Shown: piece after piece, positions 3,813-58,440 of the stretch
Numbering within the stretch: position 1 is the first letter of the stretch
How the letters are laid out: the number at the start of each line of letters is the position of its first letter
From: Candidatus Pacearchaeota archaeon
Lineage (GTDB): Archaea > Nanobdellota > Nanobdellia > UBA10117 > JAFCGA01
DNA length: 64,000 nt
NCBI GenBank assembly: GCA_017608345.1
Contig: JAFCGA010000001.1
Coordinates: 97,766 to 161,765, forward strand
Direction: 5' to 3'
Position numbers and translations under genes: made by a program
The notes under the pieces: model-generated
Seen by the model: the letters and a program-made list of their open reading frames with translations, nothing else
The model's database searches: none
Told to the model about the DNA's origin: nothing

Positions 3813-3831
3813 AAAATTCTATTGTTTCTAT

Positions 3832-4080
3832 GGGCTAGGCTGGCCGGTGCAGGTGCGCGGCTGTTACCTGAAATCGTCTTTACAGGGGCCGAAAAGCTGG
3901 GGGCGGCATTGCTATTATTTGCTGTCCTGATTGTTAGCGTCGAAGCATCGCCTTCAGGGGTGTTATGTTCATATGAATCTGGTCAGACCTTGACGGGAGC
4001 AGCCATAGTGTGCTCATGGTGTGCTCTGGAGATACGGTGTGGAGCTGGCTTTTGGGGTTAGCAGTAAGTGATGGTTTTTT
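3832..4080 (+). ncRNA. signal recognition particle RNA (archaeal 7S/SRP RNA), ends approximate
   Basis: A GC-rich island in an AT-rich genome with its own TATA box at about -25 and a terminal T6 run. It contains UGGUCAGACCUUGACGGGAGCAGCCAUAG, which matches the universally conserved helix-8 core (compare E. coli 4.5S AGGUCAGGUCCGGAAGGAAGCAGCCAAGG). The 5' GGGCUAGGCUGGCC can pair with the 3' GCUGGCUUUUGGGGUUAGC. Confidence 0.65.
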
Positions 4081-4101
4081 CAACCTCAGTGACGCCCACT
4101 T

Positions 4102-12628: not shown

Positions 12629-12666
12629 ACTCTTTTACTTTAGTTATTATTGGGGTCGTAGCTCAG

Positions 12667-12703
12667 AGTCTTTCTTTCTCCTTGGGCGAGAAAGGCGAGT
12701 AAC
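12667..12703 (+). other. D-loop intron of tRNA-Phe (boundaries +/- 2 nt)
   Basis: The insert AGUCUUUCUUUCUCCUUGGGCGAGAAAGGCGAGUAAC lies between GCUCAG and UCGGGAGAGC. It has an internal hairpin CUUUCUC/GAGAAAG. Confidence 0.6.
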
Positions 12704-12747
12704 TCGGGAGAGCACTAGACTGAAGATCTAGGTGTCATGGGTTCAAA

Positions 12748-12859
12748 CGCTGCCCCTTTCTTTTAGAAAAAGAAAGGTGTAAGGTAGCCCAAAGAAAAGG
12801 CATTTACTACGCGACTTCGTCGCTCCGAATATGCCTTCGGCAACTTTGCAGCTGGAAAA
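12748..12859 (+). repeat. T-loop intron of tRNA-Phe, a member (C1) of the dispersed C-type structured repeat family
   Basis: A 10-bp hairpin CCTTTCTTTT-AGA-AAAAGAAAGG, then CCCAAAGAAAAGG and CGACTTCGTCGCTCCGAAT blocks, align with 38573-38670 and with the reverse complement of 35449-35552. The intron ends GCUGC/GCAGC pair next to the T-stem. Confidence 0.6.
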
Positions 12860-12873
12860 TCCCATCGACCCCA

Positions 12874-13305
12874 CTAAATTTTATAAAATAATTTTATGCA
12901 AAAATCCTGATCGAGGATAAGCTGTTTCTCTAAGGCTTCTTCCGGAGAAGCCCATTCAAAAGTCTTATGCTCAGTAGAATTAATCAAAATGCTTGGCTTA
13001 TCAGCTAATTTGAGATGAAACATATAGTAGACAAAATCAAACTCGGGATATTTAACATAGAGCTTATCAAAATAAGCTAACTGAGACTCAGTTATAACTA
13101 TTCCCGTTTCTTCTTTTAATTCTCTCAGCAGTGCGTTAATTGGAGATTCGCCTTCATCAATCTTACCTGCGGGAACGCCCCAAGTATTACCCTGCGGTTT
13201 GCGATCCTGTCGGTGCAATAATAGGATCTTTCCATCAAACTCCACTAGGCAGCTAACTACTTCGAATTTCGGATTGAATTCCTCGGGGCTAGCTCTAAAA
13301 ATCAT
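12874..13305 (-). CDS. NUDIX hydrolase
   Basis: Nudix box GKIDEGESPINALLRELKEETGI (GX5EX7REUXEEXGU). Confidence 0.8.
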   Translation of the reverse strand: MIFRASPEEFNPKFEVVSCLVEFDGKILLLHRQDRKPQGNTWGVPAGKIDEGESPINALLRELKEETGIVITESQLAYFDKLYVKYPEFDFVYYMFHLKLADKPSILINSTEHKTFEWASPEEALEKQLILDQDFCIKLFYKI

Positions 13306-34230: not shown

Positions 34231-35448
34231 ATGGTAAAAGAATGCTTACCCGAAATGAACATTGGCTTAATCGGCCATGTTGATCATGGAAAAACAACCC
34301 TAACTGCGGCGCTCTCTGGCAAGTGGACAGATATTCATTCTGAAGAACTTAAGCGAGGTATCACTATAAAGTTAGGATACGCAGATGTAGACATACGAAA
34401 GTGTCCCAAATGCAAAGCACAGGAAGCTTACACTACTAAAGAAAAATGTCCGAAATGCAAATCAAAGACTAAACTCCTCAGAAAAGTCTCGCTAATCGAC
34501 GCTCCTGGCCACGAAACGCTTATAGCAATCATGATCTCCGGAGCTGCAATTATGGATGGCGCGCTATTAATGATCGCTGCTAACGAGCCTTGTCCTCAGC
34601 CGCAAACCCGCGAGCATTTAGCTGCATTAAAAATTCTAGGAATCAAAAATCTAGTAATTATTCAAAATAAAGTTGATCTAGTAACTAAAGAAGAAGCTAA
34701 GAAAAATCACAAAGCTATAAACAAGTTCGTAACGGAAGCTCTCGGTTTCGAGGTTCCAATCATACCAATCTCTGCTCAGAAACAAGCAAACGTAGACTTT
34801 GTAGTCGAAGCAATTGAAGAACTTTTGAAAGCTCCAGGCAAATGCAGTGGAAATCCAGAAATGGTAATTGCACGTAGCTTCGACATTAACAAACCTGGAA
34901 CTAAAATTCCCGAACTCTGTGGCGGTGTTCTTGGCGGAGCAATTATTTCCGGCGAGTTCAAAGTCGGAGATAAACTAGAGATCAGACCTGGTCCAAAGAA
35001 CGAGAAAGGACAATGGGAACCTATAATAACGAAGCTGAACTCAATAGCTTGCGGTTGTGTATGCGTTAAATCAAAGTGCTCTGGCGGTTCTATAGCCTTT
35101 GCAACCGCTCTAGATCCTTCGATGACAAAAAGCGACTCCCTTGTAGGTAATCTAGTTGGAATTGCTGGCAAAATGCCTCCGGTTTTTCATAACCTCGAAT
35201 TAGAAACAAAGCTCTTCGGTAAAGTTATGGGCGTTAAAGAAGACACACTTATCGCACCAATAAAAGGTAACGAGCCACTTATGATTTCTGTAAGCACCTG
35301 TACAACGCTCGGAATAGTAGCTCAAGCAGGCAAAAAGATCAGATTAAATCTAAAACGCCCAGTATGCGCACATAAAGGAGATAAGGTAGCAATTTCTCGC
35401 CAGATTAGAAATCGCTGGCATTTGATTGGCTTTGGGATTATTAAATAA
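34231..35448 (+). CDS. eif2g: translation initiation factor aIF2 gamma subunit
   Basis: G-domain NIGLIGHVDHGKTTL, DAPGHE, NKVD; zinc ribbon CPKC...CPKC; 405 aa. Confidence 0.95.
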   Translation: MVKECLPEMNIGLIGHVDHGKTTLTAALSGKWTDIHSEELKRGITIKLGYADVDIRKCPKCKAQEAYTTKEKCPKCKSKTKLLRKVSLIDAPGHETLIAIMISGAAIMDGALLMIAANEPCPQPQTREHLAALKILGIKNLVIIQNKVDLVTKEEAKKNHKAINKFVTEALGFEVPIIPISAQKQANVDFVVEAIEELLKAPGKCSGNPEMVIARSFDINKPGTKIPELCGGVLGGAIISGEFKVGDKLEIRPGPKNEKGQWEPIITKLNSIACGCVCVKSKCSGGSIAFATALDPSMTKSDSLVGNLVGIAGKMPPVFHNLELETKLFGKVMGVKEDTLIAPIKGNEPLMISVSTCTTLGIVAQAGKKIRLNLKRPVCAHKGDKVAISRQIRNRWHLIGFGIIK

Positions 35449-35552
35449 AGCGAGCTGATGAGTGAGCGATTATTCCCGAGCGCAGCGAGCAATCTGCTTC
35501 TTTCTTTTTGGACGCCTAGTTTTTCTTTCTTGCAAGAAAGAAAAAATGGCTT
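35449..35552 (-). repeat. C-type structured repeat (C2, inverted orientation) inserted between the two copies of the aIF2-gamma 3' end
   Basis: Its reverse complement aligns with 38573-38670 and 12748-12859. Shared parts are the polypyrimidine/polypurine hairpin (TTTTTCTTTCTTGCAAGAAAGAAAAA), CCAAAAAGAAAG, and GCTCGCTGCGCTCGGGAATAATCGCTCACTCATCAG. Confidence 0.6.
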
Positions 35553-35594
35553 AGAAATCGCTGGCATTTAATCGGATTCGGAATAATTAAGTAA
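35553..35594 (+). pseudogene. orphan duplicate of the last 13 codons plus stop of aIF2-gamma
   Basis: AGAAATCGCTGGCATTTAATCGGATTCGGAATAATTAAGTAA encodes RNRWHLIGFGIIK*, as does 35407-35448. There are 7 differences and all are synonymous third positions. Confidence 0.7.
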
Positions 35595-35602
35595 ACTGGA
35601 TA

Positions 35603-38526: not shown

Positions 38527-38572
38527 AATTTAACTTAAGGTGGTTCCAAATAAATACTTTTCCCCTGTCAAT

Positions 38573-38670
38573 CCCTTTTCTTTGCGAAAGAAAAGGTCTA
38601 GACGTTACCCCAAAAGAAAGCAGTTAACTCCGCTTCGCTCCGAATTAAACGCTCACTCATCAGTTCGCTC
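38573..38670 (+). repeat. C-type structured repeat (C3) in the divergent intergenic region upstream of the primase
   Basis: A perfect 10-bp hairpin CCTTTTCTTT-GCG-AAAGAAAAGG (38574-38596) is followed by CCCCAAAAGAAAG, CTCCGCTTCGCTCCGAATTAAACGCTCACTCATCAG. Confidence 0.6.
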
Positions 38671-38712
38671 TAAACTACCATATTCTTATTAAACTTTCTT
38701 ACTACTAGCAGT

Positions 38713-40068
38713 ATGATGGTTCGCCAATCGGAAGTTATTAAGCATTATTCCAATCCGGCGGTTGCTGCTGAGCTAATTAGAGTATCACAAGATCGAGAGG
38801 TTAGTGTTCAACTGCGGAGTAAGGGTTACGGTAAAAGACCCTCAGTGTTGCAGTTTCCAGCTGAAGTCAAGGATCTGGTTAGATCTGGAGCTACTTCGTT
38901 TCATATGTCAGAAGAAAGATGGTCGGATCCTATGCAATTGCGGACAGATATGAATAAACGGGAGCTGAACGATCTTCGTATTGGCTGGGATTTCATAATC
39001 GATATTGATTGTCCTTGGTTTGAATACTCGACTATTGCCGCTTCGGTGTTGCTCGACGCGATTAAACAACATGGAGTGAAAGCTGCCCTTAAATTCTCAG
39101 GTAATCGTGGCTGGCATATTGGAATTCCGTTTGAAGCTTTTCCCGCAGAGATTGGTCGGCGTAAAACTGAATCTCTTTTTCCAGCAATTACTGCTACGAT
39201 TATAACTTACTTAAAGCAGTATACTGAAAGCTCGATGAGCGACAGAATAATTGAATTTGAGGGCAGTGATGTGAAAAATATTCTAAAACGTACGGGTAGG
39301 AAAAAAGAAGATTTTATGGTATCGGGCAAATTAGACATATTCACGCTTATCGAACTAGACCTTGCCCTCAGCTCCTCACGGCACTTGATAAGAGCACCGT
39401 ATTCAATACACGAGAAGACTGGTCTTATTTCGATTGTTATTGATCCGGATAAGCTGAACTACTTTAAGCGAGAGCATGCTAAACCTGAAAATATAGCGGA
39501 AATTAATGACTCTTTTCTAAATCCTTCAAAGATTGCGGCTGGTTCTGCTTCGCAATTATTGACGCAGGCTCTTGATTTTGAAGCACAAGAGAAAAGTAAA
39601 GCTAATTCTGAAAAAGTTACTGTGGAGTTCGAGCCGTTCGAAGGCAAGGTGCCCAAAGAGAAATTTCCTCCGTGCGTAAAGAATATACTAGCAGGACTAG
39701 AAGACGGTCGTAAAAGATCATTATTTGTTTTGATGAATTTCTTAAAGTCGGTCGGCTGGCCTTGGCCAGATATTGAAAATGAGGTCAGAGAATGGAACTT
39801 AAAGAACAAGCCGCCGATGAAAGACGGCTATCTTAATAGCCAGCTAAAATGGTCCAAGCAACAGAGTTCGGTGTTTCCTCCACCTAATTGCGCAGATGTT
39901 GGCCACTACAAAGATACTGGAATCTGCAAGCCAGACAAGTTCTGCGAGAAAATCAAGAATCCGCTGACGTATGTGAAAAGACAGCTAAGATTTAGTGCTA
40001 CTCAACCTAAACGTAGAAAAAAGAAGAAGTCAGAAGCTCCAGTAAAATCAGCACCAATAAAAACGTGA
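38713..40068 (+). CDS. archaeo-eukaryotic DNA primase, fused PriS-like catalytic domain plus PriL-CTD-like domain
   Basis: WDFIIDIDC and FSGNRGWHIGIPF are PriS catalytic blocks. The C-terminal FPPCVKNILAGLEDGRKRSLFVLMNFLKSVGW resembles the PriL Fe-S domain PPC(M/I) helix region. The tail is basic. Confidence 0.7.
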   Translation: MMVRQSEVIKHYSNPAVAAELIRVSQDREVSVQLRSKGYGKRPSVLQFPAEVKDLVRSGATSFHMSEERWSDPMQLRTDMNKRELNDLRIGWDFIIDIDCPWFEYSTIAASVLLDAIKQHGVKAALKFSGNRGWHIGIPFEAFPAEIGRRKTESLFPAITATIITYLKQYTESSMSDRIIEFEGSDVKNILKRTGRKKEDFMVSGKLDIFTLIELDLALSSSRHLIRAPYSIHEKTGLISIVIDPDKLNYFKREHAKPENIAEINDSFLNPSKIAAGSASQLLTQALDFEAQEKSKANSEKVTVEFEPFEGKVPKEKFPPCVKNILAGLEDGRKRSLFVLMNFLKSVGWPWPDIENEVREWNLKNKPPMKDGYLNSQLKWSKQQSSVFPPPNCADVGHYKDTGICKPDKFCEKIKNPLTYVKRQLRFSATQPKRRKKKKSEAPVKSAPIKT

Positions 40069-58320: not shown

Positions 58321-58440
58321 GTCGGGAATACCACCAGTCTACTGACTGGTGGTCCAGTGAGTGTATTCCCGAGCATGCTCAAGGATGGACCAACTGGAAC
58401 ATGCCACCGGTCTATTGACCGGTGGTCCTTGACATATTGC
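58321..58440. other. densely structured element: two paralogous 9-bp hairpins plus nested inverted repeats (candidate small RNA or structured 5' leader of the minus-strand gene)
   Basis: Hairpins CCACCAGTC-TACT-GACTGGTGG (58331-58352) and CCACCGGTC-TATT-GACCGGTGG (58404-58425); outer stem CGGGAATA/TATTCCCG (58323-30 / 58364-71); palindrome GAGCATGCTC (58371-80). A minus-strand TATA (GTAAGTTTTATAA) lies at ~58453-58465. Confidence 0.45.

Follow-up and report, generated by a model that had tools for sequence, protein, structure and literature searches.

The region 12652-12873 (+ strand) of a 64-kb window (64,000 nucleotides of the metagenome-derived contig JAFCGA010000001.1, from an assembly labelled Candidatus Pacearchaeota archaeon; the coordinates below refer to this window unless a relative is named) is occupied by a tRNA-Phe(GAA) gene whose 222-nucleotide (nt) pre-tRNA span is split by two inserts, one in the D-loop and one in the T-loop. 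Read from position 12652, the locus consists of GGGGTCGTAGCTCAG, a 36-nt insert, CTCGGGAGAGCACTAGACTGAAGATCTAGGTGTCATGGGTTCAAA, a 112-nt insert and TCCCATCGACCCCA. Joining 12652-12666, 12703-12747 and 12860-12873 produces a 74-nt canonical cloverleaf that ARAGORN identifies as tRNA-Phe(gaa). Applied to the unspliced 64-kb sequence, the same program calls zero tRNAs anywhere, and Rfam finds no tRNA in the window at its gathering score, nor at E<=1. A TATA-like sequence, TTTTAAAT, is found about 28 nt upstream of exon 1. The initial annotation described a tRNA-Phe gene perfect apart from a 112-nt insert in the T-loop. The coordinates and length of that insert were correct; the 36-nt insert in the D-loop had been missed, and the junction given as UUCAAA/AU (the slash marks the boundary) actually reads UUCAAA/U. 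A NUDIX gene on the opposite strand (12874-13305) converges on the tRNA gene, its stop codon (12874-12876) abutting the discriminator base.

A P-type ATPase gene is located 470 nt downstream of the tRNA gene. Orthologs of this ATPase in two relatives (61-62% amino acid identity) are directly preceded by an intronless tRNA-Phe(GAA) gene (loci L011 and L012-14; tRNA coordinates L011:5410-5484 and L012:5892-5967), with a TATA-like box at a similar upstream distance. The spliced exons of the window gene are 84% identical to the L011 ortholog and 88% to the L012 ortholog (the latter value counted by hand). Stem differences from the L012 gene occur at 4:69, 5:68 and 29:41 and are compensated in all three cases, the variants that distinguish the window locus being G4-C69, U5-A68 and A29-U41. 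Judged by sequence and gene order, the window gene is the syntenic ortholog of the relatives' gene; it appears to be kept under selection for tRNA structure and looks functional. As the syntenic orthologs are intronless, both inserts are best viewed as recent gains in the window lineage. That standard tRNA finders miss the locus entirely recalls the "missing tRNAs" noted for DPANN genomes; in lineages whose splicing endonuclease (EndA) has the L3 loop, many tRNA genes are disrupted and the sets of predicted tRNAs are incomplete (PMC5829648).

Both inserts are bounded by sequences with the potential to form a relaxed bulge-helix-bulge (BHB) motif. At the D-loop, the 5′ strand of the D-stem (GCUC) pairs at 4 of 4 positions with a mimic inside the insert (GAGU) to make helix H; the bulges are 3 nt long (5′ AG/A, 3′ AA/C), helix h measures 1 bp, and the 9-bp helix h′ (GUCUUUCUU/GAGAAAGGC) has a pyrimidine and a purine strand, as does the hairpin described further below. 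The predicted removal of the 36 nt leaves a 9-nt D-loop, AGCUCGGGA, equal in length to that of both orthologs. At the T-loop, the ends of the insert, GCUGC (12749-12753) and GCAGC (12848-12852), pair beside the T-stem as had been proposed, forming the 5-bp helix h′ of a relaxed BHB in which the intact 5-bp T-stem provides h. Helix H can be drawn in two registers. In one, UUCA (U54-A57) pairs with intron UGGA at 4 of 4 positions, with a 4-nt 3′ bulge. In the other, UUCA faces GGAA through 3 bp and one A.G mismatch, both bulges are 3 nt long (AA/C and AA/U) and the product has the canonical 7-nt T-loop UUCAAAU. The 112-nt insert folds better than its shuffled versions (z=-3.3).

A scan of the window returned 2085 strict BHB motifs among approximately 1.5e7 position pairs, that is, about 1e-4 per fixed boundary pair; at this frequency, two well-placed motifs are not attributable to chance. 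In the DPANN archaeon ARMAN-2, position 59/60, where the T-loop insert is found, is likewise a known site of introns and undergoes cleavage in vitro; splicing endonucleases of broad specificity accept bulges of 1-4 nt (PMC3239211). The joined-exon cloverleaf, the synteny and the junction motifs bear out the proposal that the T-loop insert is a BHB-type intron. Both inserts are probably real BHB introns, which would be removed from the transcript by splicing.

A copy of a repeat of some 100 bp makes up about 70% of the T-loop intron; the repeat combines a perfect polypyrimidine/polypurine hairpin with a purine tract and a CGCT-rich block. Two other copies, c38k and c35k, occupy intergenic positions (Table 1); the three segments and their shared hairpin and motif blocks are as the initial annotation described them. 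The hairpin reads CCTTTTCTTT-GCG-AAAGAAAAGG in c38k (38574-38596) and TTTTTCTTTCT-TGCA-AGAAAGAAAAA in c35k (35520-35545). Both c38k (38650-38663) and c35k contain a further motif, CGCTCACTCATCAG. The window holds exactly three perfect polypyrimidine/polypurine hairpins whose arms reach 8 bp or more, one at each repeat copy, and none of the same kind was found in 184 kb of the relatives' loci. Across the three copies, the stem pairs are Watson-Crick in 31 cases out of 31, with no mismatch, and compensatory double changes affect 6 of the 10 positions. Covariation of the stem pairs, in an element that has otherwise diverged by 25-30%, suggests that the hairpin is maintained. The stem-pair table was compiled by hand and anchored on the loops because the MAFFT alignment shifts the hairpins by one column; RNAalifold, when run on the MAFFT alignment, pairs the pyrimidine arm with the purine tract instead.

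The purine tract also mirrors the purine arm of the hairpin, exactly over 8, 8 and 12 nt as against a direct match over 7, 7 and 9 nt. The mirror layout spans 12755-12800, 38574-38620 and 35499-35545 and is formally that of an intramolecular triplex (H-DNA type). With three copies, the margin is too small for this reading to be claimed.

Comparison of c38k with the reverse complement of c35k gives 75% identity over 101 nt (blastn E=1.4e-11), and a covariance model (CM) built from c38k alone scores c35k at 58.5 bits. The intron aligns to c38k with 71% identity over 79 nt (blastn E=1.5e-5), the Smith-Waterman score lying at z=11.6 relative to a dinucleotide-shuffle control. Since dinucleotide shuffles destroy low-complexity tracts, stricter leave-one-out controls were applied. 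An nhmmer model of the two intergenic copies retrieved the intron as the best independent match in 480 kb (E=0.095), and the c38k-only CM scored it at 17.6 bits (E~0.04), with nothing else credible. The segment of the intron that follows the purine tract, and that contains TCGCTCCGAAT, was evaluated by itself against random windows and gave p~0.003; the similarity is therefore not limited to low-complexity tracts, a possibility that the initial annotation had raised. Thus blastn, nhmmer, the CM and the block test support the assignment of the intron core to a small dispersed family. Over its last 29 nt, the intron cannot be shown to resemble the other copies, and its first ~6 nt are likewise unshared. 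The D-loop intron was also considered as a family member and rejected, having no significant similarity to the family; it has no relative elsewhere in the window.

Table 1. Features of the tRNA-Phe locus and of the repeat copies (window coordinates).
Feature	Coordinates	Strand	Description
tRNA-Phe exon 1	12652..12666	+	nt 1-15: acceptor 5′ strand, D-stem 5′ strand, A14 G15
D-loop intron (predicted)	12667..12702	+	36 nt, position 15/16; relaxed BHB, HBh′ type
tRNA-Phe exon 2	12703..12747	+	D-loop 3′ part through T-loop A59, anticodon GAA inside
T-loop intron (predicted)	12748..12859	+	112 nt, position 59/60; positions ~6-83 are the repeat copy
Block 1, intron copy	12755..12777	+	perfect 10-bp polypyrimidine/polypurine hairpin CCTTTCTTTT-AGA-AAAAGAAAGG
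Block 2, intron copy	12791..12800	+	purine tract AAAGAAAAGG
Block 3, intron copy	12820..12830	+	exact 11-mer TCGCTCCGAAT, identical to 38635-38645, same offset
tRNA-Phe exon 3	12860..12873	+	U60, T-stem 3′ strand, acceptor 3′ strand, discriminator A; CCA not encoded
Copy A, aIF2-gamma 3′ end	35405..35449	+	functional gene end; left flank of c35k
Repeat copy c35k	35450..35550	-	between convergent aIF2-gamma (stop codon 35446-35448) and a 561-aa open reading frame (stop codon 35603-35605)
Copy B, aIF2-gamma 3′ end	35551..35595	+	displaced duplicate; right flank of c35k; ancestral position beside the convergent gene
Repeat copy c38k	38568..38672	+	between a divergent 387-aa gene (start 38526, -) and the PriS-PriL primase (start 38713, +)

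The surroundings of c35k point to an insertion. In three relatives (L009, L015 and L016; aIF2-gamma 69-77% identical), the aIF2-gamma gene directly adjoins the following gene or overlaps it, and the element is absent. In the window, c35k is bracketed by a 45-nt direct duplication of the last 15 codons of aIF2-gamma (copies A and B). The first 19 nt of the duplicates are identical; seven differences follow, all of them at synonymous third-codon positions. Target-site duplication with neutral decay of copy B fits this pattern poorly (p~0.005 by our own estimate). From their sequence, copies A and B look like two diverged alleles of the gene end that have become joined, and not like a simple target-site duplication. 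Their source would be either an integrating element equipped with a replacement gene end, or illegitimate recombination with DNA from a related strain. The arrangement can also be compared with that of an att site: a 19-nt identical core is followed by synonymous-only divergence, with an intervening "element" of just 101 nt and no integrase in the window. No att-like direct repeats were found at the other two copies.

Additional interpretations of the junctions were tried and rejected. A match between the tail of the element and the duplicated aIF2-gamma end, as a degenerate copy of it, is not significant, and an mRNA intron that would splice copy A to copy B finds no BHB with the required 146-nt spacing. 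Extension of the homology into the flanks (5′, 3′, or tRNA exon against the aIF2-gamma end) was non-significant throughout (p=0.14-0.66). The T-loop insert is flanked by AAA on both sides; nothing significant is seen at c38k.

The first nucleotide of c38k lies at most 6 nt past a promoter block (38548-38567), which is also conserved in L009 (6978-6997), the closest relative. This block, AAATAAATAsTTTTCCCyT, stands 23 nt from the start codon in both the window and L009, beside a gene of 387 aa in the former and 384 aa in the latter (50% amino acid identity); the conserved distance suggests a leaderless transcript. Being upstream of the TATA-like boxes of both flanking genes, which are apparently leaderless, c38k is probably not transcribed. 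As for c35k, it carries T5-T6 runs on both strands where the two convergent genes end. Beyond the hairpin, the intergenic copies fold no better than shuffles (z~0). A BHB-like motif near c38k or c35k would be meaningless, as the scanner finds around 2000 per strand by chance, and such motifs were dropped as evidence. On the opposite strand, CUGAUGAG was considered as a hammerhead or box C/D motif and rejected as well (no Rfam match at E<=1, boxes misspaced).

These data modify two earlier suggestions. That the intergenic copies might be RNA-processing substrates finds no support, given that c38k sits between divergent promoters, where it is probably not transcribed, and that no structure extends beyond the hairpin. 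The broader idea of a mobile or recombining structured element that can live as a tRNA intron fares well as far as its behavior as inserted DNA is concerned (empty sites exist); the "structured" part does not hold for the intergenic copies past the hairpin.

Neither nhmmer run with --max nor an unfiltered CM search detected further copies. A search of 16 loci of relatives with nhmmer found no copies, viral contigs gave 0 matches, and blastn against phages and plasmids gave no match. Scanning metagenome contigs for exact 20-mers returned one match in a GC-rich coding region (L010), judged to be due to chance. There is no other tRNA in the window, and a similar intron in a second tRNA gene was not found within it.

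We favor, with a probability of about 0.6, the view that the repeat is a non-autonomous DNA-level insertion element of approximately 100 bp that persists only in harmless sites, including as the core of the tRNA-Phe intron. Such an element would spread or recombine at the DNA level. One harmless site would be the gap separating convergent genes, in which the T-runs of the element might in addition act as terminators; another would be the spacer between two divergent promoters; and a third the inside of a tRNA gene, where splicing would remove the element from the RNA. In the latter case, the ends of the insert would form h′ between themselves and H with the T-loop, creating the relaxed BHB; the tRNA-splicing endonuclease would then cut this structure and an RtcB-type ligase would reseal the exons, giving a normal tRNA.

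Several observations weigh against this view. The T-loop BHB is irregular: by the strict 2-nt cleavage rule, the perfectly paired register leads to an 8-nt T-loop, the register that yields a 7-nt loop requires the A.G mismatch in H, and the register of the 3′ site is ambiguous, cleavage being placed at 12858/12859 or 12859/12860. Neither a splicing endonuclease or RtcB ligase nor a transposase or integrase is present among the ~38 window open reading frames scanned with Pfam. The leave-one-out E-values of the intron are modest (0.04-0.1), and its link to c35k is indirect, through c38k, because the direct comparison of intron and c35k is not significant. The evidence for the family comes from three copies on one metagenome-derived contig, and searches of metagenome, viral, phage and plasmid collections found no copies. 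Conserved terminal inverted repeats are absent (GCTGC/GCAGC is found in the intron copy only, the others having <=3-4 complementary nt), and there is no clear target-site duplication at any copy. Finally, the relatives that provide the empty sites are distant (61-77% amino acid identity), and secondary loss may have occurred there.

With respect to the origin of the intron, a history in which the element entered the loop of a short 59/60 intron that was already there appears somewhat more likely than creation of the intron in a single step, because the BHB-forming ends are not shared with the other copies and a random insertion would seldom be spliceable. In the single-step scheme, which we consider unlikely, a mobile intron-like unit would bring its own ends (GCUGC...GCAGC-UGGA) to supply h′ and half of H, and the intergenic copies would represent neutral mis-insertions. 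The distance from the hairpin to the 3′ end, 105 nt in the intron versus 99 nt in both intergenic copies, leaves little room for an older host intron and is in line with this scheme; so are the AAA triplets that flank the insert and could represent a target duplication of 3 nt, the CAGCT near the 3′ end in both the intron and c35k, and the intron transposition proposed for Thermoproteales (Fujishima 2010, as cited in PMC4090602 and PMC4033280). However, the parts of the intron that make the BHB, the last 29 nt and the first ~6 nt, have no significant similarity to the other copies, the BHB frequency given above means that a random insertion would rarely be spliceable, and the other copies reside outside tRNA genes. 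A more far-reaching proposal, in which a ~100-bp DPANN element turns directly into a BHB intron and also inserts at a gene end bringing along the recoded last 15 codons, strikes us as doubtful. If it were true, non-canonical archaeal tRNA introns would originate from general DNA elements resembling miniature inverted-repeat transposable elements (MITEs), not from other introns alone, and an uncharacterised integration mechanism that preserves gene ends would be indicated.

The direction could also be the reverse, with the tRNA intron as the source and its excised (circular) RNA, or intron DNA, copied into the intergenic sites. Excised archaeal introns are indeed circularised and stable, and the intron is the best-folded copy (z=-3.3 versus ~0). 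Nevertheless, we think this direction very unlikely: the intergenic copies are closer to each other (75%, with a common 3′ block missing from the intron) than to the intron, no reverse transcriptase is seen in the window, and c35k, with its duplicated gene end, bears a signature of DNA recombination. Equally improbable in our opinion is that selection maintains the repeats as functional modules, be it as small RNA genes or as bidirectional terminator/regulatory cassettes, with the intron hosting such an RNA. Compensatory changes that keep the hairpin and the T5-T6 runs of c35k, placed exactly at two convergent gene ends, would accord with a function of this kind. Yet no Rfam family matches even at E<=1, C/D boxes are absent from the intron strand, and the CUGAUGA that c38k and c35k carry on the opposite strand has no properly spaced D/D′ boxes and is missing from the intron copy. 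Moreover, there is no structure beyond the hairpin, the element is missing at the aIF2-gamma site in relatives, and c38k is located where a terminator is unneeded. The least probable interpretation, and a very unlikely one, is that two insertions have turned the tRNA-Phe locus into a pseudogene, with tRNA-Phe supplied by another gene. The 64 kb examined are a part of the genome, and the failure of standard tRNA finders on this locus would agree with decay; against it stand the syntenic position and conserved promoter placement, the intact exons with their compensatory stem changes, and the fact that the BHB geometry of both inserts restores ortholog-like D- and T-loops, an outcome that is very unlikely by chance.

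If the tRNA-Phe intron does have an insertion element as its core, the locus would directly connect a dispersed, inserted DNA element with an archaeal tRNA intron, a connection that is rarely seen. It bears on the question of how non-canonical tRNA introns are gained in archaea; here, an intronless orthologous state is available together with an intron sequence that recurs in intergenic DNA, and one of the intergenic copies, c35k, is a datable insertion with a recombination scar. Combined with the complete genome and RNA data, the locus would become a testable case for tRNA introns as domesticated or tolerated mobile DNA.

The aIF2-gamma protein (34231-35448) is at most 55% identical to those of species representatives, which are labelled as Woesearchaeota or as a (probably mislabelled) Methanosarcinales metagenome-assembled genome. 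The host would seem to be a DPANN, Woesearchaeota-like archaeon without a close sequenced relative. The primase next to c38k (38713-40068, + strand) is a single fused PriS-PriL protein (Pfam DNA_primase_S and DNA_primase_lrg), as in other DPANN archaea. Elsewhere in the window, an archaeal signal recognition particle RNA at 3828-4101 (+ strand) scores 95 bits, just below the Rfam gathering score of 96.5, and is missed at default thresholds. Two consecutive open reading frames (793-1533 and 1627-2595, + strand) may represent a split, frameshifted or highly diverged MCM, the MCM AAA-lid domain being found in the second only. Two perfect palindromes that are related to each other, ACCACCAGTC-TACT-GACTGGTGGT (58330-58353) and CCACCGGTC-TATT-GACCGGTGG (58404-58425), precede an ABC-transporter operon (from 58511) by about 100-180 nt and resemble operator sites.

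Sequence modules shared between a tRNA intron and loci outside tRNA genes have a precedent in the euryarchaeal tRNA-Trp intron, which hosts a box C/D guide RNA. The present repeat resembles it in also occurring outside tRNA genes and differs from it in having no C/D boxes or k-turn and no sign of a functional RNA. In size (about 100 bp), lack of coding capacity, dispersal, possession of a hairpin, location at gene ends or between promoters, and presence or absence between relatives, the repeat is reminiscent of MITEs and of REP-like repeats. Unlike MITEs, it has no demonstrable conserved terminal inverted repeats or target-site duplications, and no parent element is known.

Non-canonical and multiple tRNA introns, including introns at position 59/60, are already known from DPANN archaea (PMC3239211). 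In ARMAN-2, pre-tRNA-Cys(GCA) has a 13-nt intron at 59/60 and pre-tRNA-Pro carries two T-loop introns (Fujishima et al. 2011, PMC3239211). The window gene shares with these cases the 59/60 site, a relaxed BHB built on the T-stem, the presence of several introns in one tRNA and a DPANN host, whereas its 59/60 intron is 112 nt long. No relation of the ARMAN-2 introns to intergenic repeats is reported in the available portions of that paper. What sets the present case apart is that the intron is related to short intergenic repeats without coding capacity, one of which bears an insertion scar of its own; a limited literature search returned no report of this situation. In Thermoproteales, different tRNA genes were found to carry introns that resemble one another, which prompted the proposal that introns transpose at the DNA level, by a mechanism described there as unknown (PMC4090602, PMC4033280). 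The two systems have in common a recent non-canonical gain, a sequence that recurs elsewhere in the genome and a suggested gain at the DNA level. They differ in that the Thermoproteales copies are introns of other tRNA genes, while both copies described here are intergenic, and in the phylum of the host. The gain of a tRNA-Thr intron in Caldiarchaeum subterraneum has been linked to an integrated 1.8-kb mobile element that encodes a recombinase (Sugahara et al. 2012, PMC3293823). Unlike that element, our repeat measures about 100 bp, is non-coding and has no recombinase in the window. As in Caldiarchaeum, intron gain is tied to a repeated, inserted element, and a duplicated fragment of the target gene lies beside the insertion, although here at aIF2-gamma and not at a tRNA gene (PMC3293823).

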